Below are positions 54,179-64,000 of a DNA stretch of 64,000 bases, piece after piece (within the stretch, counting starts at the first letter, position 1; the number at the start of each line of letters is the position of its first letter). The stretch covers positions 2,769 to 66,768 of the forward strand of contig SXOO01000158.1 in NCBI GenBank assembly GCA_005776725.1, in the 5' to 3' direction. The notes below the pieces were generated by a model, which worked only from the letters and a program-made list of their open reading frames with translations, made no database searches and was not told the origin of the DNA. The position numbers and the translations under genes were made by a program. The DNA is from Pseudomonadota bacterium (GTDB lineage Bacteria > Myxococcota_A > UBA9042 > GCA-2863065).

Positions 54179-54300
54179 CTCTACACGTTCTGAGGTGAGC
54201 GCGGGCCGCGCGCCGGCGCGTGCACGGCCCAGCGCGGTCAGTCGCCCGGCGGGCACACCGACGCGCCCTCATCGGGGCTGACCACGGCGGTCGCTTCGCC
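54179..54300. repeat. direct repeat copy B (right boundary of insertion)
   Basis: See copy A. It covers the last ~21 codons of the esterase gene plus the downstream spacer, and a 15-nt copy of the bamA-like gene end (ctctacacgttctga). Confidence 0.9.
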
Positions 54301-55791
54301 CGACGTCCACCGGGCCAGGGCCTCGAACATCGTGGTGGGTGCTCCGCTGGCGCTGGCCGGGTCTTCGATTGTCACCTCGTAGACGTCCTCGTCGCTTCGG
54401 AGCGTCTCGTGCTTCGGGCACCACGGACCGAAGGCCCCCGGGGGCTCTGCGATCGTCTCCTCGGCGGTGCCGCCGGGCCCGCCGATTGCGGGCAGCGCCC
54501 TGAGCCCGGCCGCGACCATCTCGGCAAACAGGGCGAGATCGTAGGTGGCGCCGCCCGGCCCGGTGAGCACACCGGCCGCGAACGGATCCGAGACGAGTGA
54601 GTCGATGAGCCCCATGCGGACGAAGAACGGGGCTGTGATGTGGTTCTCCATCACGTGGGTCTCGTTCGAGCAGCGCCACGCGTCGCCGGCGTGCGCCTCG
54701 AGGCAGCTCTCGTCGCGCACGGCCCCCCAGTTCGAGGCTTCCTCGGCCGCGCCGGCTTCGAGGAAGGCGGCGCCGGTGCAGAGTCCGGCCTCATCGCAGA
54801 AGGGTGAGTTCTCGAAGCCAACCTCCTCGAGGTCGGGCCGATACGCAGAGTCGATGATGACTCGGTAGTCCGCGAGGTCGGCGTTGGAGGCTCGTAGGAG
54901 CCCCTCGACGTAGTCGGCGTTCTGGACCGTGCCAGCCCCGCCTGCCGACGCGCCAGCGAGGACCACCGCCGTGGCGTCGTCGAGGTCGGGCAGGGTGTTT
55001 GCGCCGGAACCGACGGTGCCCGCCTCGCGGCGGAGCGTGGCGAGGGTGGCCTCGAGGATTCGGCGCCCCAGGAAGTGCACCTTGTAGGTGACCGCGGCGT
55101 CCGTGTGCGGGTGGTGGCCTTCGAGCACGGCGTTGCGGTGGGTCCCGATCCAGTTGTCTGACGAGCAGTACTTCACGAAGACTTGGTTGTACTGACGGAA
55201 GGGGCTGGCGACGGACTTCGCGAAGCTCGCGGGGCGCGCGAGGATGCCCTTCCCATCGATCCCCACCTTCGGCGCCGGGGTGATCGACATCCCGAGCAGC
55301 GAGAACGCCGTCCCCACGTTGCACCAGCGGCCGGCGCAGCTGTCGCCGTTGTTACAGTTGCCCCCTCCCTGGAGCTGGATGATCCAGCGCGTGTCGTCGG
55401 CGCCCGCTGGTGCCGGGCGATAGTAGAAGACGGCCCCGGTGCCGTCGTTGCACAGCGCGTCCGGATAGACGGTGAGATCGAGGTCGTGCCTCGACAACAC
55501 CGAGTCGTCCTTCCCTTCGGCGAGCCCGCCCGCGCTGCCCTTCTTGCCGCAGTCGAGGACGTCTTGGATGAAGGGCACGGCGGCGTGCACGTCCGCGCCT
55601 GCGTCGCTGCCGGACGCATCTTCGGTGGGTGCGTCGGCGCCGTCTTCCTGGGCCTCCGCGCCGGCGTCGCCCTCGGGGACCTGGGCGTCTCTTGGCGCCG
55701 TCGACGCGTCGGGCACCGAAGTTGCCGCGGAACCCGCGCAGCTGGACGCGACGCCGAGGAGGAGCGGAACGAACAACAGCGATGGCCTCAT
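54238..55791 (-). CDS. pectin-acetylesterase/Notum-like alpha/beta hydrolase lipoprotein
   Basis: ORF 54238..55791. Lipobox LLGVASSC. LCNDGTGAVFYYRPA...WIIQLQGGGNCNNGDSCAGRW (GGGxC motif) and nucleophile context VVLAGASAGGAG. Confidence 0.65.
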   Translation of the reverse strand: MRPSLLFVPLLLGVASSCAGSAATSVPDASTAPRDAQVPEGDAGAEAQEDGADAPTEDASGSDAGADVHAAVPFIQDVLDCGKKGSAGGLAEGKDDSVLSRHDLDLTVYPDALCNDGTGAVFYYRPAPAGADDTRWIIQLQGGGNCNNGDSCAGRWCNVGTAFSLLGMSITPAPKVGIDGKGILARPASFAKSVASPFRQYNQVFVKYCSSDNWIGTHRNAVLEGHHPHTDAAVTYKVHFLGRRILEATLATLRREAGTVGSGANTLPDLDDATAVVLAGASAGGAGTVQNADYVEGLLRASNADLADYRVIIDSAYRPDLEEVGFENSPFCDEAGLCTGAAFLEAGAAEEASNWGAVRDESCLEAHAGDAWRCSNETHVMENHITAPFFVRMGLIDSLVSDPFAAGVLTGPGGATYDLALFAEMVAAGLRALPAIGGPGGTAEETIAEPPGAFGPWCPKHETLRSDEDVYEVTIEDPASASGAPTTMFEALARWTSGEATAVVSPDEGASVCPPGD

Positions 55792-56039: not shown

Positions 56040-59000
56040 ATGCCGTCTCGTTACGCCGTCCTGTTCGCCCTCGTGATGCCGCTCCGCGCCCTGGCCGACT
56101 GCTGCGCGCCCAACGCCAACCCAGGCTGCCCGGACAGCGGCGCCGTGCAGTCCTGCGTCTGCGCGAAGGACGCCTTCTGCTGCAGTACGGCGTGGGACGA
56201 GACGTGCATCGCCCTCGCCAAGAGCCAATGCAGCCTGACGTGCACGCTGCCCAAGGCCGAGACCTGCTGCCAGACGAACACCAATGCAGCGGGCTGCGCC
56301 GATCCGGTGGTGGAGAGCTGCGTCTGCGCGAGTCACCCTCCCTGCTGCACCAGCGCCTGGACGCCGGTCTGCATGCAGCTCGCGCGCAATACCTGCGGCG
56401 CCGACTGCCCCAAGGGCCAGTGTTGTCTGGGCAACATGGGCCTCGGCTGCGACGACCCGGCCGTCGAGAGCTGCGTGTGCGCTACGGACCCCTACTGCTG
56501 CACCACGAACTGGGACATCGCCTGCGCCAACGTGGCTCACGGGTGTGGCTGTGGCGGCTCGCAGGGCTGTTGTGAAGCCTCCTCCGCGTCCGGCTGCAGC
56601 GATGAAGACGTCCAGCTGTGTGTCTGTGAAGAGGATCCCGCTTGCTGCTCGGGCCAGTGGCACGCCGGCTGCGTCGCGCTCGCCGACCAGGCGTGTAACG
56701 CCCAGTGCCCGGCCGCGCTCGAGCCCTGCTGCAGCGCTCACGACTCCAAGTCGTGCGACGAGCCAGGCGTGGCCGCCGCGGTCTGTGCCAAGCGCCCCGA
56801 GTGCTGCTCGGGCCCGTGGACCCAGGAGTGCGCGGACCTCGCCGTGATCTCCGGCGACTGCCCGGCGCCGAAGGCCGACCCATGCACGCCGTCGCAGGTG
56901 GCTCGCGGCACCGTCGACCCCGAAGTCGAGGCGTGCGTGTGCGGGAAACGCGCCAGCTGCTGCACGCAGCGCTGGGACGCCGCCTGCGCCGTGCTCGCCA
57001 CGGCCTGCGGCGCTGTATGCACCACCGCCGGCTCGAACGACTGCTGCGTCGGCGACGTAGGAGCCACCGGCTGCGGGAGCTTCCCGGTCCAGGCCTGTGT
57101 CTGCGACGCGATTCCGAGCTGTTGCACCCTCGGCTGGGGTCTCACCTGCGCGTTCTACGCCGAGACGCACTGCGGCGTCCCGTGCCCGGCCACGAAGTGC
57201 TGCGAGGTGGATGGACGCCCCGGCGGCTGCGACGACGCCGAGATCACCCAGTGTGTCTGCGCCGCGGACCCCCACTGTTGCGAGGAGTGGGGGGGCGCCT
57301 GCGTGGCGCTCGCCGACGGCTGCGGCGCCGGGTGTTCGGGCCCGCCGCCGAAAGGGGCCTGCCTCGAGGCCCACTCGAGCAGCGGGTGCGCCACGGGCAC
57401 GATTGAAGGCTGTGTTTGTGCCGCGCTGCCCGAATGCTGTAGCGGCCCATGGGGCGCCGCCTGCGTGGATCGGGCGCAGGCCTGTACGCCGGACGTGTGC
57501 GGCGATGACCTCTGCACGCCTGGGGAGGGCTGCAGCGACTGCGCCGCCGACTGCGCCTGCGGGACCGGCGCGCAGTGTCTTTCAGGAGCGTGCGTGCCTC
57601 GCGACCTCTACTTCTTCGGCGGCATCCCCCTCCCTCAGGGCTGGGGTCAGCTCGGAGAGGTGGTGTTCGGCTGCGGCGCGCCCACCCTCCAGCGCTGCAC
57701 GGACCCTGCCTACCTGGATCGGCCGTGCGGGCGCGCGCTCCTCGTGGCGGCGCGCCAGGATCCGGACCATCCCTGCCACGCGTTCGCGCAGACGAACGGC
57801 AACGATGCCGCGGAGGCGATCACGGAGGCTCCGGAGCGCACGCTCCTGCCTAACCTTGCGTCCCGGCTGGTATCCCTCACTGCCCCGCCCCGGCCGCTGA
57901 CCGAGACGGCGGCGATCCCGGTTGCGCCAACGGAGCCTGCCCGGATACGGCGCGACACGCCCTGGGCGCAGGTCCCACCGAACTCGGAGGCCTTCGTCAA
58001 GGGGCTCTTCGAGGTCAACGGGGCAAGGGTCGCGTCGTGTGTCGAGGCGCTGTACGAGCGGCACTTCGACTATCACCGCTTCGAGGACGCCGCCGCCTCC
58101 GTCGAAGACGCCCGAGCGGTCTACCAGCTGGCCTACGGGCCCGTGGGCACGGCGTCCAGCATCGCTACGCGCACGATCAACGGCAGTGGGCTCCGGGCGC
58201 GCGATGGCTCCGTGTCCCGTCAGCTGGTGCTCGATCGCCGAGGGGCACGGAGCCCGTTCTTCGACATCCCGCCCACACTGTACGTGGCGCTTAGCCAGCG
58301 GCCCGATCTCAACCCGGCGGCGCCCTTCGCCAGCCTGGGCATCGGGACGACGCTGCCCCCCGGTTGGGCCGCGTGGCCGAAGCTGAGAGCCGGAATGCAG
58401 ACGGTCACCACGCGCTCATTCGTCTGGCACAGGGCGCGGAACGACGCGGCGATCGCAGCGGGTTACGACGACGTGCAGCTCCTGTCGTATGAACCCTTCA
58501 AGGAGCGGTTCCGCCAGCTCGTAGCGGCGGCTGAGGGCGCGCTTCAGCGCGCTGCGTTCCTTAACCGGCAGATCCCCAGCTTCCAGCCGCCCGTCGGGGT
58601 CGGGCCCGAGGAGCCCGAGCTCGAGGACCTGCCGGGTGCGCCCACAGCCCAGGATCTGGCCCGCGCCGACGCGCTGGCGGAGCGCCTGGTGGGGCGCGTC
58701 GTGGAGGCCCTCGTGGACGCGCGCGCACTCGGCTGCCTCGAGCCCGGGGTCACGCCATGCGACTGGTCGCCCGAGGACTTCGTGCGAGACGTTGCGTCCG
58801 CGGCGCTGCCGGGGCGCGAGCGCGATCTGCTGCGGTGCTACGAGGCCACGTCCACGTTCACGTTCTCGCAGCTGGCCAACTTCGCGCTCCCCACGCTGGG
58901 CACCAAGACCTACCCCGCGCGGGACTACCTCGCGAGCGCCTCGGCGTTGGACGATCTGACGGTCGAGAAGGAGGCCTGGGTGCGCGACGTCGTGGCGCAC

Positions 59001-59921
59001 GTGACGGGGCTTGGCCTCGCGGTGGTGGACGGCGTCCCGACCTTGGGCCAGGTCATGGATATGTTCCGGGACGCCCTGCCGGACCGGTGGTTCGGCTTCG
59101 ACACGGCGTTCCACTACGACTGGTCGCTGGTCGACGTGGCGGGCTCCGATCCGAACGAGCCGAGTGTGGACGTGCAGGCCTTCGCAGCCTTCGACGCCAC
59201 CGTTGTGGTGCTGGGCCGAACCGTGCCCCTGGCCGGGTTCCGGGCGGACTTCGGCGGGACCGTGGAACCGGCGGAGTCGTCCGTCCACGTCGAGCTTCTG
59301 GGAGCTACGCTCTACGCTGAGACCTTCAGTACGCGGGTGCCCCAGAGGTGGGACCTCGTGCGCACCCGGTACGAGGACAACGCCGAAATCCGCGCCGACG
59401 GCCCGATCTTCGTCATCGCCGGTGTCCCGATCCGTATCAGCGGAGGGATTGGGGGCTCGATCGCTTTCGACTTCGACATGACGGCGGCGGCACCGACCGC
59501 GGAGGTCCGCGCCGACCTTCGCACCACCTTCCGCCCATCCGCCGAGGTGTACGGTTTCCTTGAGGCGGCCGTGGACTACGCGATCGTCCGCGCGGGCATT
59601 CGCGGCGAGCTGGTGCTCATCGGCGCCGACATCCCGACCAACTTCTGGGCGCGCGTGAGCCTCGAGGACAACGCGTTCGTGGCGCGCGCCGCGGCCAGCT
59701 CAATCGCAACGCTGCGCAGCCTCAACGGCCGCTTCAAGTTGTTCGCCGAGATCAACCTCGGGATCACGAAGGAGCGCTACGAGAAGCGGATCGCGAGCTG
59801 GCGTGGCGTCGAGACCCGCGGGACGCTCTTCGCTACGGACTTCGAGGTGCCGCTCTTCGGGCTGATCGAGGCGTGTGCCATCCCCGGCGCGCTCGTCTGC
59901 GAGTCCAGCGATGCGCCGTAG
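56040..59921 (+). CDS. secreted 1293-aa protein: 9 x ten-Cys repeat module plus ~800-aa unassigned C-terminal region
   Basis: ORF 56040..59921. Signal peptide MPSRYAVLFALVMPLRALA/D. Repeat array at residues 20-487. CGDDLCTPGEGCSDCAADCACG motif. The remainder has no motif I recognise. Confidence 0.8.
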   Translation: MPSRYAVLFALVMPLRALADCCAPNANPGCPDSGAVQSCVCAKDAFCCSTAWDETCIALAKSQCSLTCTLPKAETCCQTNTNAAGCADPVVESCVCASHPPCCTSAWTPVCMQLARNTCGADCPKGQCCLGNMGLGCDDPAVESCVCATDPYCCTTNWDIACANVAHGCGCGGSQGCCEASSASGCSDEDVQLCVCEEDPACCSGQWHAGCVALADQACNAQCPAALEPCCSAHDSKSCDEPGVAAAVCAKRPECCSGPWTQECADLAVISGDCPAPKADPCTPSQVARGTVDPEVEACVCGKRASCCTQRWDAACAVLATACGAVCTTAGSNDCCVGDVGATGCGSFPVQACVCDAIPSCCTLGWGLTCAFYAETHCGVPCPATKCCEVDGRPGGCDDAEITQCVCAADPHCCEEWGGACVALADGCGAGCSGPPPKGACLEAHSSSGCATGTIEGCVCAALPECCSGPWGAACVDRAQACTPDVCGDDLCTPGEGCSDCAADCACGTGAQCLSGACVPRDLYFFGGIPLPQGWGQLGEVVFGCGAPTLQRCTDPAYLDRPCGRALLVAARQDPDHPCHAFAQTNGNDAAEAITEAPERTLLPNLASRLVSLTAPPRPLTETAAIPVAPTEPARIRRDTPWAQVPPNSEAFVKGLFEVNGARVASCVEALYERHFDYHRFEDAAASVEDARAVYQLAYGPVGTASSIATRTINGSGLRARDGSVSRQLVLDRRGARSPFFDIPPTLYVALSQRPDLNPAAPFASLGIGTTLPPGWAAWPKLRAGMQTVTTRSFVWHRARNDAAIAAGYDDVQLLSYEPFKERFRQLVAAAEGALQRAAFLNRQIPSFQPPVGVGPEEPELEDLPGAPTAQDLARADALAERLVGRVVEALVDARALGCLEPGVTPCDWSPEDFVRDVASAALPGRERDLLRCYEATSTFTFSQLANFALPTLGTKTYPARDYLASASALDDLTVEKEAWVRDVVAHVTGLGLAVVDGVPTLGQVMDMFRDALPDRWFGFDTAFHYDWSLVDVAGSDPNEPSVDVQAFAAFDATVVVLGRTVPLAGFRADFGGTVEPAESSVHVELLGATLYAETFSTRVPQRWDLVRTRYEDNAEIRADGPIFVIAGVPIRISGGIGGSIAFDFDMTAAAPTAEVRADLRTTFRPSAEVYGFLEAAVDYAIVRAGIRGELVLIGADIPTNFWARVSLEDNAFVARAAASSIATLRSLNGRFKLFAEINLGITKERYEKRIASWRGVETRGTLFATDFEVPLFGLIEACAIPGALVCESSDAP
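56097..57500 (+). repeat. coding tandem array, 9 copies of ~50-aa Cys-rich module (period ~150-160 nt)
   Basis: Each unit follows CC-x5-8-C-x7-8-CVC-x5-CC-x2-3-W-x3-C-x6-8-C-x1-4-C. DNA landmark tgYgtNtgYg recurs at about 56156, 56326, 56471, 56624, 56933, 57097, 57252 and 57411. Confidence 0.85.
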
Positions 59922-61629
59922 GCTCGGGCTGGCCGTCATCGTCGGCCTGGCGGTGGTGGGTGCGGCGTGGCGCGCCTGGGAGCTGCCGGTGGACGCACCC
60001 TCCGTCGCTGGCGATGCCTCCGCGGCGCGAGTCGGCGCAACGGCTCCACCGTCGCCTGGCCCGTTGGCCGCCAGCGTTCCGGCGTCGACCGACTGGCGGG
60101 TGCGCCTCGCCGTGGAGTCGTCGCTCCGCGTCGGCGAACAAGCGCTGGACGGTCGTGTCGTGTTGGACGCCGACCTGAGGCTCACGCAGGAAGGCCCGGG
60201 AGTTTTCCGCGCGGGGTTCTCCGCCGTGCGTGCCGCCAGTGCCGCCGTCATGGGCGTGCCCTTCAGCGGCCAACTCACCCACGCCGTGGCGCGCCTCACG
60301 CTGGGCTCGGACGGCGCCCTGGTCGGCCTCTCCGTCTCCAAGGGCGCCTCGCCGCTCTTCACGCACCTCATGGGCATGCTGGCGCGCGAGACCTTCCCGC
60401 CCACCGGCGGCGGCCGCACTCGTCAGGAGGTCAGCGCTGTGGGGGAGGCGCAAGCGGTCTATAGGTTCGGCCCCGCAGGTTTCACGCGCGCCCGACGGTA
60501 CAAGGCGCCGGGGACCGCCGCCGCAACGCTCACGCTGGCGTGCCCCCCGGGCGTCGACCCGGGAGCGCTCATCTGTGTGGAGCGCTTCCACGCCACCGAG
60601 CGCCTCGACGACGGGCGGGGCTTCTCGGCGAGCCTCGACGCCGAGCGCGTGCGCATCGGGACCACGGAGGTGGCGGTGATGTCGCTCGCCACTCCCACCG
60701 CCGTGGCACCGCCCGCTGCGCCCGCCACGCCGATGCCGGCGCTCACCCAGACTGCGCTGCTGGGGACGCTCGCCGCGCCCCCCGCCCCGGGGGCGGAGCG
60801 CGCCCGCTTTGCCTGGGACGCCACACGCACGCTCGCGCTGGATCCTGCGGCCGTGCGCGCGACTGAGGCGCAGCTACGCCGATCGCGAGGCCCCGATCGC
60901 GACCTGGGCCTCGACCTCCTCGCTCAAGCGGGCACGCCGGCAGCGCAGGCGGCGTTCGTTCGCCTCGTGGAGGACGCGGTCCACGAGGAACGCCCTGAGG
61001 CCGCGGCCGAGCTCCAGCGTTCGGTGCTGATCCCGGCGCCCACAGCGGAGACACGCGCGGCGCTCGATCGATGGTGGACGAACGGGCCCTCGCGCGACGT
61101 GCGCCTCGCCGCGGCGCACGCGCTAGGCGCGGCGTCGGCGGGCGACGAGGCGGTGGCGAAGCGGCTCGCTGACGCGGCGCGCGGGAGCGACCGCCCGGCC
61201 CTCTTGGGGGCGCTCGGCAACACCGACACGACCACCGCCGCCGCTGTCCTGCAAGCCGCACTGGCGGAGGGAGGGGAGGCCGCGGTCTCGGCTGCCCGGG
61301 GCCTCCGACACCACCCGGTGGCGCTGCCGGCTCTCGTGGCGCGACTGGCGGGCGAGCTTGCACTGGCGCGCGCCGCGCTCGATGCGCTCACCACGCTCGC
61401 CCGCTCGTCGCCCGAGGTGGTGCCGTCCGTGGCGGCGGCAGGGGTGGCTGGGGCGATCAACCCCAAGCTGGCGGGCCAGCTCCTAACGTTCTTTCAGCGA
61501 CATCTCGCCGGGCCAAACCGCCCGGCGCTCGTCGCGGCTGCAGCCGTGATCGCGGAGCTCCCCGGGGTGGACCCGGTGACGCGCGGCCGGATGCGTGACT
61601 TCGTCATCCTCGCCGGAGCCCCCTCATGA
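59911..61629 (+). CDS. membrane-anchored hypothetical protein with Ala-rich HEAT/ARM-like C-terminal repeats
   Basis: Frame of ORF 59875..61629; ATG at 59911 (11-nt overlap with the upstream stop). MRRRLGLAVIVGLAVVGAAW anchor, a beta-rich ~250-aa region, then helical repeats (DVRLAAAHALGAASAGDEAVAKRLADAARGSDRPALLGALGNT...). Confidence 0.65.
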   Translation: MRRRLGLAVIVGLAVVGAAWRAWELPVDAPSVAGDASAARVGATAPPSPGPLAASVPASTDWRVRLAVESSLRVGEQALDGRVVLDADLRLTQEGPGVFRAGFSAVRAASAAVMGVPFSGQLTHAVARLTLGSDGALVGLSVSKGASPLFTHLMGMLARETFPPTGGGRTRQEVSAVGEAQAVYRFGPAGFTRARRYKAPGTAAATLTLACPPGVDPGALICVERFHATERLDDGRGFSASLDAERVRIGTTEVAVMSLATPTAVAPPAAPATPMPALTQTALLGTLAAPPAPGAERARFAWDATRTLALDPAAVRATEAQLRRSRGPDRDLGLDLLAQAGTPAAQAAFVRLVEDAVHEERPEAAAELQRSVLIPAPTAETRAALDRWWTNGPSRDVRLAAAHALGAASAGDEAVAKRLADAARGSDRPALLGALGNTDTTTAAAVLQAALAEGGEAAVSAARGLRHHPVALPALVARLAGELALARAALDALTTLARSSPEVVPSVAAAGVAGAINPKLAGQLLTFFQRHLAGPNRPALVAAAAVIAELPGVDPVTRGRMRDFVILAGAPS

Positions 61630-63218
61630 TCAGACGACTGTTCTCCCTGTGCCTTGCCAGCGTGCTCGTGGCTTGCGGTGCTGCTTCGCCGGACGCGACG
61701 CCTGCAGACACCCTCACGTCCTCCGAAGAGGTGGGCCCCGCCGACTCCTCCTCCCCGGACGACGTGCTCGGGACCGAGGACGTGCTCGAGGCGGACGCGC
61801 CTCCTTCCGAGGACGCTGGGTCGGAAGACATCACGGCGTCGGACGACGTCCCGGCGCCGGAGGACGCGCCAGCCCCCGACGACGCGCCAGCCCCCGAGGA
61901 CGCGCCCGCTCCCGAGGACCTCGGGACGCTGGACGACGTCGCGGTGCCCGAGGATGGCGGAGCACTGGACGACGCCCCGTCGCCGGACGACGTCCCTGCG
62001 CCAGACGATGGGGGGGCGCTGGACGACGCCGCGTCGCCGGACGACGTCACGGCACCGGACGACGCGCCCCTACCTGAGGACGTGGGTACGCCGGACGACC
62101 TGACCGCACCGGACGACGTAGGCACTCCGGTGGGCGAGGCGGCCTGTAACGACGGCCTCGACGACGACGGGGACGACGCCATCGACTGCGCCGATTCGGA
62201 TTGTGCGGAGGTCAGCCCGTGCGACGCGCCCAGCACGTGCTGCACCGAGGGTGGGGCATGCGCCGAGCTCGCCGTGGCGGCGTGTGTTTGCGCGGAAGAC
62301 CCCGCGTGCTGCGCGGGCCCCTGGGACGCCTTCTGCGCCGCGCGGGCCGCCACCTGCGGCGGGCGCTGCGGCGCCACCGCGAGCTGCTGCGCGCCCGCGC
62401 CCACTTCGGGCTGCGCTGATGCGGACGTCACGAGCTGCGTGTGCGCGCTGCGGCCCCAGTGCTGCGAAGGCGCTTGGGACCTCGGTTGCACCGCAGCAGC
62501 GGCCGGGTGTGGCGCGTCGTGCCCCGGGGTTGTCCCCCCAGAGAACTGCACGAACGACGCCGACGACGACGGCGACGGGGCGATCGACTGCGAGGACGCC
62601 GGGTGCATCGCTCAGGCCGCCTGCGCGGCGCCCGCGCCGAACTGCTGCACCCCGCACCCGGGCGGAGGATGCTCCACGTCGGCAGCGCAGGAAGCCTGCG
62701 TCTGCGCGCTGGAACCTGCGTGTTGCCAGGAGTCGTGGGACCTGATCTGCGTGGCGAGAGCCCTCGACACGTGCGGCGCCACCTGCGCTCCTCCGGACGA
62801 GGACTGCACCGGAGGCGTGGACGAGGACCTCGACGGGCTCGCGGACTGCCTGGATCCCAGCTGCGCCGACGTGTTCCCGTGCTCGCTGCTGGCGCCGCCT
62901 TGCTGCGAGCCCAGCGTATTCCCGGGTTGCGCGCTCCCGGCCGTAGAAGCGTGCGTCTGCGCCGAGGCGCCAGAGTGCTGCACGGGCCCGTGGGGGCCGG
63001 ACTGCGCCGCCGCGGCAGGAACGTGCGGGATGCCCTGCCCAGTGGGGCCCGCCGACGGGCCGTGCTGCGCGGCAACGCTCGGGCTGCCCGGTTGCGGGGC
63101 CGCGCCAGCGGTGGAGGCGTGCGTCTGCGCGCTCGACAGCACGTGCTGCTCCATCGGCTGGGATGCCGCGTGCGTCGCCTTGAGCGTGGCGGCCAGCTGT
63201 CAGACGTGCGCTGACTGA
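61626..63218 (+). CDS. lipoprotein: acidic Pro/Asp spacer plus 5 x ten-Cys repeat module interleaved with Asp-rich Cys motifs
   Basis: ORF 61626..63218 (ATGA overlap with the upstream stop). Lipobox ASVLVAC. Residues ~36-170 are DDVPAPEDAPAPDDAPAPEDAPAPED... Repeats run from residue 205 to the C-terminus. Confidence 0.8.
   Translation: MIRRLFSLCLASVLVACGAASPDATPADTLTSSEEVGPADSSSPDDVLGTEDVLEADAPPSEDAGSEDITASDDVPAPEDAPAPDDAPAPEDAPAPEDLGTLDDVAVPEDGGALDDAPSPDDVPAPDDGGALDDAASPDDVTAPDDAPLPEDVGTPDDLTAPDDVGTPVGEAACNDGLDDDGDDAIDCADSDCAEVSPCDAPSTCCTEGGACAELAVAACVCAEDPACCAGPWDAFCAARAATCGGRCGATASCCAPAPTSGCADADVTSCVCALRPQCCEGAWDLGCTAAAAGCGASCPGVVPPENCTNDADDDGDGAIDCEDAGCIAQAACAAPAPNCCTPHPGGGCSTSAAQEACVCALEPACCQESWDLICVARALDTCGATCAPPDEDCTGGVDEDLDGLADCLDPSCADVFPCSLLAPPCCEPSVFPGCALPAVEACVCAEAPECCTGPWGPDCAAAAGTCGMPCPVGPADGPCCAATLGLPGCGAAPAVEACVCALDSTCCSIGWDAACVALSVAASCQTCAD
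61731..62135 (+). repeat. low-complexity coding repeat (Asp/Glu/Pro/Ala; 15-18-nt units such as gacgcgccagcccccgaS)
   Basis: gaggacgcgccagcccccgacgacgcgccagcccccgaggacgcgcccgctcccgaggac..., plus longer ~54-nt units (ggRgcRctggacgacgccScgtcgccggacgacgtc). Confidence 0.8.
62238..63215 (+). repeat. coding array, 5 copies of the same ten-Cys module as 56097-57500
   Basis: CCTEGGACAELAVAACVCAEDPACCAGPWDAFCAARAATCGGRC; CCAPAPTSGCADADVTSCVCALRPQCCEGAWDLGCTAAAAGCGASC; CCTPHPGGGCSTSAAQEACVCALEPACCQESWDLICVARALDTCGATC; CCEPSVFPGCALPAVEACVCAEAPECCTGPWGPDCAAAAGTCGMPC; CCAATLGLPGCGAAPAVEACVCALDSTCCSIGWDAACVALSVAASCQTC. Confidence 0.85.
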
Positions 63219-63297: not shown

Positions 63298-64000
63298 TCA
63301 CCTCCGGTAATAGGGCAGGCCGGTCCCGCGCTCGACGACCGCCCCGGAGGTCCTCCGGCATCGCGAGTCAACGAAGCTCCGGGGGCGGAGCTCGGATGGC
63401 CAGAGGGTCGTGGCGTCGCGATGACCGGCCCCCACGGTGGGGAACAAGTCGAGGCCAGAGACGCGCTCCACAGCCGCCAACGTCACCACCCCCCGCTGCA
63501 GCGCCCCGCGGAGCTCGTGTGCGCGCACCTCGCTCTGATTGTGTGGCAGCAGAATGGAGACCGTCTCCACGGTCCCCTCCGCCGTCTTGCGCGCAAGGAC
63601 CTTGAAGAACGCAGAGGGCACGGCGACGCGCCGCTCGCGGTCCCCGCGGGCCATACGCACGACCGTATCGGGTGCGTCTGGAGCGGCGTCGCGGTCGTAG
63701 TCGAAGACCGCGCCGGTGACCACGAAGACCGGAGAGGACTGGGCGTAGTCTCGGACCAGGGCCTCGAGCATCATCCAGACGCCGCGATTGAACTGGCAGA
63801 ACTGCGGCGCCATGTTCGACATGACGAAGGTGTTCAGCATCCCCACGGAGTCGATCGCGTCGGCGCTGGGCACCATGTGGCCCTGGTCGAACAGCGGCTC
63901 CCGATAGTCCGAGGGCCGTGACGCCTCCACGCCTCTGAGGCGTGGATCCGCCCGAAAGCAGTCGCGGCGCCGCACGCCGTCCCCCGCCGTCACCTGATTC
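63298..64000 (-). CDS. DNA/RNA non-specific endonuclease family protein, partial (N-terminus beyond right edge)
   Basis: Frame of ORF 63298..63993 stays open to the window edge. FDQGHMVPSAD (DRGH-type catalytic His) and SNMAPQFCQFNRGVWMMLE (Asn/Glu metal site pattern). Confidence 0.7.
   Translation of the reverse strand, partial: NQVTAGDGVRRRDCFRADPRLRGVEASRPSDYREPLFDQGHMVPSADAIDSVGMLNTFVMSNMAPQFCQFNRGVWMMLEALVRDYAQSSPVFVVTGAVFDYDRDAAPDAPDTVVRMARGDRERRVAVPSAFFKVLARKTAEGTVETVSILLPHNQSEVRAHELRGALQRGVVTLAAVERVSGLDLFPTVGAGHRDATTLWPSELRPRSFVDSRCRRTSGAVVERGTGLPYYRR

Follow-up and report, generated by a model that had tools for sequence, protein, structure and literature searches.

The question raised by this locus is what kind of module is repeated along the N-terminal part of a large cysteine-rich protein, and what such a module is for. 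The protein, which we call P1, has 1293 amino acids and is encoded within a window of 64,000 nucleotides of contig SXOO01000158.1 (assembly GCA_005776725.1), from a bacterium placed by GTDB in the Myxococcota_A. By the window we mean the whole of this stretch of DNA, the G+C content of which is ~70% throughout. An identical call of the P1 gene is present in three public assemblies, the longest contig being a 206-kb metagenome contig in ENA. Our preferred interpretation, to which we give a probability of about 0.6, is that the repeated unit represents a new family of autonomously folding extracellular domain, with three helices and five disulfide bonds, which serves as a sturdy, modular scaffold or stalk. 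The features discussed are collected in Table 1.

A hidden Markov model (HMM) built from the units divides residues 20-488 of P1 into nine consecutive full-length units placed head to tail. Each has about 48 amino acids, and the linkers between them have 2-6. A first-pass annotation of this DNA had put nine units at 56097-57500, had described units 5, 6 and 9 as degenerate, and had counted 14 units in the window with an invariant Trp. Our analysis bears this out. The HMM envelopes cover nucleotides 56097-57503, and the Cys counts along the array are 10, 10, 10, 10, 8, 8, 10, 10 and 9. A six-frame regular-expression scan of the window confines the core of the motif to two open reading frames (ORFs), that of P1 with nine units and that of a second protein, P2, with five, and the Trp is present in 14 of these 14 units. 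About 20% of the residues of a unit are Cys, arranged to give two CC doublets and one CxC motif.

P1 has two orthologues that share its architecture, P0005 (43% identity) and P0028 (38% identity). They possess 11 and eight units respectively, compared to nine in P1. The terminal unit takes one form in all three proteins, with a Cys of the CC doublet missing at its start (ACLEAH in unit 9 of P1, PCLEAN in P0005 and SCTQDN in P0028). The unit of P0005 that is closest to unit 6 of P1 (57% identity) retains both of the Cys that unit 6 lacks. The array is followed by a connector that is kept in both orthologues, and when its seven Cys are added to the nine of unit 9 the mature N-terminal region of P1 has an even total of 92 Cys. 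An element similar to this connector (GDDLCTPGEGCSDCAADCACG...), with the form CGDGVCDxxxGExxxTCPEDC, also lies between units of homologue P0003; elements of the connector type match no Pfam family.

No tandem repeat at the DNA level was found in 56097-57500 by Tandem Repeats Finder (TRF), and the units of the array are only 30-50% identical in pairwise comparison. The array is therefore old, and has been kept by selection at the level of the protein; it is not the product of a recent expansion of the DNA.

How widely the unit occurs was examined using a profile of the 14 window units, searched exhaustively against 1.84 billion representative proteins, with matches clustered at 50% identity. 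The profile matched 2994 clusters at E ≤ 1e-3; the count falls to 1210 when E ≤ 1e-10 is required and to 223 when E ≤ 1e-30 is required. The largest number of units in one matched protein is 33. The only word-indexed (shared 5-mer) match to the profile is P0001, a protein of 75 amino acids with a single unit. In the best 150 homologues there is a median of eight units, which span a median of 55% of the protein. These 150 proteins provided 1357 units for statistics of conservation. Seven positions form a near-invariant core, conserved at 92-100%: C2, C11, C21, C27, C28 and C36, together with W32, which at 99% is as well conserved as the cysteines. Given the 1210 further clusters at E ≤ 1e-10 and the conservation of these core columns, the array is not a product of chance. 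The ten-Cys consensus of the first-pass annotation needs correction in one respect: in the family as a whole only these six Cys and the Trp are near-invariant.

The remaining four Cys occupy alternative positions in the model: 3 or 17, 19 or 16, 43 or 44, and 47. These alternatives define three sub-types. Sub-type (a), the form found in the window, is CC..GC..CVC..CC..W..C..C..C; sub-type (b) has CC..GC.D..C...VC, and sub-type (c) has CF..GC.D..CC..VC. The first is the commonest (427 of 1249 retrieved units), a count to be read with the bias of the profile towards it. Outside the core there is further conservation at G10 (84%), D13 (67%), V20 (89%), D24 (80%), P25 (60%), F/Y26 (65%), D33 (86%), V/A37 (89%) and A40 (80%). 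The positions that exceed 60% are Cys, Trp, Gly, a Pro before Cys, residues within or flanking predicted helices (V20, V/A37 and A40) and Asp residues that precede a helix. All others vary freely. A reduced version is seen in homologue P0050 (units at 647-1672), where four Cys remain in the pattern DPFCCETxWDGxCQ…SDSC and the entire N-terminal half of the Cys framework is absent. This suggests that the CC-W-C core may be able to fold on only two disulfides.

The structure of unit 1 was predicted with AlphaFold2 (AF2), using an alignment of the 14 window units only. The model is a compact three-helix fold of high confidence, with a mean predicted local distance difference test score (pLDDT) of 95.3 and a predicted template modelling score of 0.77. 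It consists of a short strand (6-9) and three helices (15-24, 26-29 and 35-44), with a bridge at 32-33. D13, D25 and D34 (numbered as in unit 1) each directly precede a helix in the model, and we read the conserved Asp residues as putative helix N-caps. The confident prediction for a unit modelled singly, and the existence of proteins with just one unit, are both as expected for a compact fold that forms autonomously. Searched with the model, Foldseek found nothing in the PDB and returned no significant match from BFVD, although it is weak on domains of ~50 residues. We provisionally regard the predicted structure as a new fold.

The first-pass annotation had judged that the Cys spacing fits none of several known Cys-rich families (granulin, CFEM, EGF, the Myxococcus cysteine-rich repeat and MopE-type motifs), and our searches agree. 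Against the 24,736 models of Pfam-A (hmmscan) the 14 window units match no family even at E ≤ 10, and the complete P1 sequence matches none at E ≤ 1; nor does P1 match any family of NCBIfam. The repeat regions of 130 homologues have no Pfam family in common that covers the repeat, and 90 homologues compared with NCBIfam have no family in common and none covering it, while the Cys positions of the core are conserved among homologues. The unit profile has no match among PDB sequences, and a broader profile of 89 units gave only chance matches there (E > 0.2). A source name was on record for four of ten homologues checked, and all four are "hypothetical" or "uncharacterized" (e.g. WP_272092174.1, Nannocystis bainbridge). 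We found no paper describing the motif. On sequence comparison the unit is thus a domain family not described in the catalogues searched (Pfam, NCBIfam and the PDB). A "faint" mark for DUF8252 (PF26780) on record for P1 was not reproduced by hmmscan and is set aside; we found no paper that mentions DUF8252.

The closest relatives in kind are the myxobacterial acidic repeats of TIGR02232 (myxo_disulf_rpt), DUF4215 and NF033662. Like the unit these are short, tandem, disulfide-rich extracellular repeats, and they share with it their phyla, their secreted or lipoprotein setting and, in some cases, the very proteins in which they stand. However, they have ~25-30 amino acids with four Cys in the pattern CxxGxxDDxGxxxDC, compared to 48 amino acids, 8-12 Cys and an invariant Trp for the unit, and their models match segments other than units, never a unit. 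DUF4215 (PF13948) and TIGR02232 have no match in the proteins of the window, and are present as separate domains in just two of 90 homologues. The copper-binding MopE motif (PF11617) matches no unit, and is present in one of the 90.

Granulin arrays (PF00396) resemble the P1 array in organization, i.e. secreted beads on a string, in which short linkers join tandem modules of ~50 amino acids that have 10-12 Cys and CC doublets. The granulin fold is built of stacked β-hairpins, with the spacing C-x5-6-C-x5-CC-x8-CC-x6-CC-x5-CC-x4-C-x5-6-C. The unit differs in its predicted helical structure, its CxC motif, its invariant Trp and its two CC doublets rather than four, and it does not match PF00396. 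The low-density lipoprotein (LDL) receptor class A, TSP1 and EGF-like domains, eukaryotic extracellular repeats with a conserved Trp or Asp, are functional analogues. They too are small modules with 3-5 disulfides and few invariant residues other than Cys, shuffled among extracellular proteins that include astacin and reprolysin proteases. There is no match of sequence or fold between them and the unit, which is predicted to be helical rather than β or irregular. Compact helical bundles with a largely disulfide core are found in small three-helix proteins such as the Euplotes pheromones and in the plant eight-Cys motif (non-specific lipid transfer proteins and 2S albumins), the latter with CC and CxC. 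These are single-domain proteins with a different order and number of Cys, whereas the unit is tandem, and neither Foldseek nor HMMER found a PDB match, so that the resemblance is unconfirmed. We also considered CysRRep, a repeat with the spacing Cx6-9Cx5-7Cx8-11Cx7-8CC that flanks enzymatic domains in secreted proteins and for which bacterial and phage counterparts are discussed (Daugavet et al. 2026, bioRxiv 10.64898/2026.06.07.730663). It has six Cys, a terminal CC and no Trp, and its spacing does not fit the consensus of the unit, so we rejected it as the identity of the unit. Since the unit fails membership in each of the named families, we class it in the generic kind, as an extracellular disulfide-rich repeat domain, to which its even Cys count and three co-lost Cys pairs conform.

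The distribution of the unit was sampled in species-representative genomes using a degenerate DNA pattern for the core of the motif. This pattern is stricter than the family itself, and the result is a sample rather than a census. At least 120 loci match it, almost all of them in Myxococcota or Planctomycetota. Carriers among the matches listed include Nannocystis exedens, Enhygromyxa salina, Paraliomyxa miuraensis, Sorangium sp. So ce131, Haliangium and many metagenome-assembled genomes (MAGs) of the Myxococcota, and Phycisphaerae, Planctomycetaceae and Isosphaeraceae of the Planctomycetota. With a looser pattern, units are also found on IMG/VR contigs. On those classed as "viral" (loci L135:6802-10710; L139:1-3393 and L140; L124:3005-5272; L128; L131) they occur, one or two at a time, in large proteins of low G+C content, and sub-types (b) and (c) can stand side by side in one protein. 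A phage-like contig encodes an RCC1-propeller protein with two units, for which there is a further match to a PHROG "tail protein" family, and a BACON-domain protein has a single unit with the BACON domain directly before it.

The first-pass annotation had noted that ten Cys in a unit would fit five disulfides, and had left a metallothionein-like reading open. We addressed this using natural variation rather than the coordinates of a model, counting the loss of Cys in those units of 150 proteins that are covered in full (1052 units). Three pairs of Cys tend to be lost together. One N-terminal Cys and C11 are both absent from 39-40 units in 8-9 proteins, and C11 is absent with two N-terminal Cys kept in only 0-1 units. 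C19 (or C16) and C43 (or C44) are both absent from 28 units in 16 proteins; the former is kept without its partner in 27 units and the latter in one. C21 and C28 are both absent from seven units in six proteins, with no single losses. Units 5 (C19 and C43) and 6 (an N-terminal Cys and C11) of P1 display two of these paired losses. In addition C3 and C47 are correlated, with phi = 0.43. The number of Cys is even (8, 10 or 12) in 690 of 763 repeat periods (90%), and in units that appear to have 11 Cys a twelfth comes immediately after. Numbering the ten Cys I to X, these data suggest a disulfide map in which III is joined to one of I and II and X to the other, with IV-IX, V-VII and VI-VIII as the remaining bonds. 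Taken with the signal peptide, the extracellular partner domains, the invariant Trp and the predicted helices, the paired losses and even parity make five disulfides a better reading than metal-thiolate clusters.

That the unit functions outside the cell is indicated by the company it keeps. An N-terminal hydrophobic segment is present in 126 of 152 homologues by a crude test, and P1 itself is probably exported by way of a signal peptide that we read by eye from its sequence. The domains found with units in the homologues scanned are Dockerin_1, Dicty_CTDC, CHRD, cupredoxin, Astacin, Reprolysin, Trypsin_2, SASA esterase, FG-GAP, GEVED, CBM96, LTD, TSP_3, HYR and the sorting tail of the type IX secretion system. 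All of these partner domains are extracellular. The arrangements vary. P0134 has an Astacin domain (146-322) followed by four units, P0139 a SASA esterase followed by seven, P0116 nine units followed by FG-GAP repeats, and P0019 a dockerin with 17 units after it.

The P1 gene heads a conserved, tightly packed set of three. The same genes are found in the same order at P0005 in a Myxococcota MAG (GCA_041687695.1, L123:6148-13697), where they encode proteins of 1426 amino acids with 11 units (P0005), 600 amino acids, and a lipoprotein of 488 amino acids with acidic repeats and four units. The product of gene 2 is 31% identical to that of the gene in the equivalent position beside P0005, which has a faint match to HEAT_2. 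The third gene encodes P2, in which an acidic low-complexity region of PEDV type is followed by three acidic double-disulfide repeats interleaved with five units. The acidic repeats match NF033662 (residues 171-199 and two further stretches) and fall outside the units, and their interleaving with units is repeated in the orthologue. A comparable PEDV repeat region is present in the P2 orthologue of L123.

Very few proteins share the C-terminal domain of P1. The domain forms three clusters at 50% identity in all, corresponding to P1, P0005 and P0028, and it has no match in Pfam and no sequence match in the PDB. An AF2 model made from the three sequences has a pLDDT of 46 and is not reliable; it has ~500 amino acids of helices followed by about 12 long β-strands. 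Foldseek matches of this model to microsomal triglyceride transfer protein, gasdermin and membrane-attack-complex pores were disregarded, with template modelling scores ≤ 0.16 and E ≥ 0.009.

The interpretation that we prefer would bring these properties together as follows. Each unit would be an independently folding extracellular mini-domain of ~48 residues, in which a short N-terminal hairpin and three helices pack around the invariant Trp, locked by five disulfides. P1 would be exported by the Sec pathway and then oxidized in the periplasm, and its nine units on their linkers of 2-6 residues would form a beads-on-a-string scaffold resistant to proteases and denaturation, holding the C-terminal domain of ~770 amino acids outside the cell. 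The exposed part of the P2 lipoprotein, whose gene is the third of this conserved operon, would be built from the same module. Across the family the module is a promiscuous extracellular building block, found attached to proteases and esterases and also to dockerins, FG-GAP and CHRD domains. We favour a role as scaffold or stalk over that of a specific binder because the copy number drifts among orthologues (9, 11 and 8), and because every strongly conserved residue reads as structural while the other positions vary freely.

Several points weigh against this interpretation. For modules of this kind a purely structural role is what one assumes by default, and a location C-terminal to hydrolases, as in P0134 and P0139, is equally typical of substrate-binding modules. 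W32 and F/Y26 could form an exposed aromatic platform, and the three conserved Asp could bind Ca2+ instead of capping helices. Neither the disulfide map nor the burial of the Trp was read from the AF2 model, and C27-C36 (VI-VIII) was assigned by elimination from the sequences, so this bond is the most tentative part of the map. The units within a protein are related, so Fisher p-values for the co-loss of Cys overstate independence and the counts of proteins are the safer measure.

The alternative that survives best is that the unit binds a ligand, which might be a glycan, peptidoglycan or a protein, by analogy with small disulfide-rich carbohydrate-binding modules (CBMs) such as hevein. We consider this possible, though not the likely explanation. 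Tandem copies would then let a protein adhere multivalently, whether to prey, to polymer substrates or to the matrix of the cell itself, and P1 could be tethered to P2. The position of units C-terminal to catalytic domains (the astacin of P0134 and the SASA esterase of P0139) would fit with this, as would their association with dockerin, CBM96, GBD and BACON domains and with the RCC1-propeller protein of the phage-like contig. So too would the pairing, six residues apart, of the invariant Trp with a position 26 that is mostly aromatic (F/Y in 65%), and the presence of the same module in P1 and P2 of a conserved operon. Yet beyond the Cys, Trp, Gly and pre-helix Asp residues the surface of the unit is essentially unconstrained, and units of one protein are just 30-50% identical. 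The drift in copy number among orthologues also argues against binding, a Trp conserved at 99%, as invariant as the Cys, is more typical of a residue of the core, and the unit has no likeness to a known CBM in either sequence or fold. A more specific form of this idea, that the unit is a recognition module for a glycan or for a partner copy of itself, so that arrays mediate adhesion and P1 docks onto P2 at the cell surface, seems to us doubtful. If it were true, arrays would attach the surface proteins of myxobacteria and planctomycetes to their targets, and would do the same for hydrolases and even for the receptor-binding proteins of phages.

It is very unlikely that P1 is a polyprotein precursor in the manner of progranulin, from which cleavage of the linkers would free peptides of 48 amino acids acting as toxins, antimicrobials or signals. 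Myxobacteria, as predators, release numerous effectors, the units lie head to tail on short linkers containing Pro, Gly and Lys, and the single-unit protein of 75 amino acids (P0001) exists. But no motif for cleavage is conserved in the linkers, some of which have just 1-3 residues, the units of most homologues are embedded between other domains or follow enzymes, and in P1 the array belongs to one polypeptide with a large C-terminal domain that is itself conserved. Least probable of all is a metallothionein-like metal sink, with Zn, Cu or Cd bound by CC and CxC thiolate clusters in place of disulfides; this would suit a Cys content of ~20% and the cupredoxin or MopE-type copper motifs of a few homologues, but a signal peptide in P1 and a lipobox in P2 would put the units in an oxidizing compartment rather than the cytosol, aromatic residues that a metallothionein would lack are present (Trp in 99%, F/Y26 in 65%), a helical fold with three helices around the Trp is predicted confidently with no metal, Cys are lost in fixed pairs and are even in number in 90% of repeat periods, the partner domains are extracellular, and no metallothionein or MopE family matches the units.

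Two genes flank the operon. Upstream and divergent (54238-55791, minus strand) is a gene for a protein of 517 amino acids with an N-terminus resembling a signal peptide and a domain of the pectinacetylesterase family (PF03283, E = 6e-24); it is not kept beside the orthologous operon in L123. Convergent to P2 and following it is an ORF of 231 amino acids (63298-63993, minus strand) that contains the stretch GHMVPSADA…NMAPQ, which we take to resemble non-specific DNA/RNA endonucleases.

Table 1. Positions in the window of the features of P1, gene 2 and P2. Residue numbers are those of the protein concerned.
Feature	Position	Strand	Description
P1 gene	56040..59921	+	ORF, 1293 aa; signal peptide, nine Cys-rich units, 7-Cys connector, ~770-aa C-terminal domain
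P1 putative Sec-type signal peptide	56040..56096	+	MPSRYAVLFALVMPLRALA; read by eye: basic n-region, hydrophobic core, A-L-A site; cleavage expected right before DCC
P1 unit 1	56097..56246	+	aa 20-69; 10 Cys; HMM envelope; AF2 pLDDT 95.3
P1 unit 2	56262..56411	+	aa 75-124; 10 Cys; HMM envelope
P1 unit 3	56418..56555	+	aa 127-172; 10 Cys, final two as CGC; HMM envelope
P1 unit 4	56565..56711	+	aa 176-224; 10 Cys; HMM envelope
P1 unit 5	56724..56864	+	aa 229-275; 8 Cys; model C19 and C43 both missing
P1 unit 6	56880..57023	+	aa 281-328; 8 Cys; one Cys of N-terminal CC and C11 both missing
P1 unit 7	57039..57188	+	aa 334-383; 10 Cys; HMM envelope
P1 unit 8	57195..57338	+	aa 386-433; 10 Cys; HMM envelope
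P1 unit 9	57357..57503	+	aa 440-488; 9 Cys; one Cys of CC missing
P1 7-Cys connector	57501..57599	+	GDDLCTPGEGCSDCAADCACGTGAQCLSGACVP; aa 488-520; kept in P0005 and P0028, consensus GDGxCxPGExCxxCAADCAC
P1 C-terminal domain	57600..59918	+	~770 aa; 10 Cys; predicted helical, then long β-strands
Gene 2	59911..61629	+	572 aa; Ala-rich, HEAT-like, N-terminal hydrophobic anchor; 11-nt overlap with end of P1
Gene 3 (P2)	61626..63218	+	530-aa lipoprotein; lipobox LVAC; start overlaps stop of gene 2 (ATGA)
P2 acidic Pro/Asp/Glu/Val low-complexity stalk	61686-62129	+	150 residues; 18/54-bp DNA tandem repeat, TRF array 61822-62064
P2 acidic double-disulfide repeats (three)	62145-62222, 62547-62624, 62805-62882	+	NF033662 (NCBIfam), CxDGxDDDGDGxIDCxDxxC
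P2 units 1-2	62235..62525	+	aa 204-249 and 253-300; 10 Cys each
P2 unit 3	62640..62789	+	aa 339-388; 10 Cys
P2 units 4-5	62898..63212	+	aa 425-472 and 479-529; 10 Cys each

Some 3000 clusters of proteins at 50% identity therefore bear a domain that has been missed by the annotation resources searched, and many of the carriers are surface or secreted proteins of very large size, made by bacteria that are predators or degrade polymers. The unit is a solid candidate for an entry as a domain of unknown function. It overturns no existing concept and introduces no new biological principle. What can be offered is a definition of the family, comprising the profile, the core of six Cys plus Trp, the three sub-types, the proposed disulfide map and a confidently predicted fold with no structural neighbour detected. 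As a compact and probably hyper-stable helical scaffold the unit may be of interest for protein engineering, and definition of the family would improve the annotation of the secretomes of the Myxococcota and Planctomycetota.

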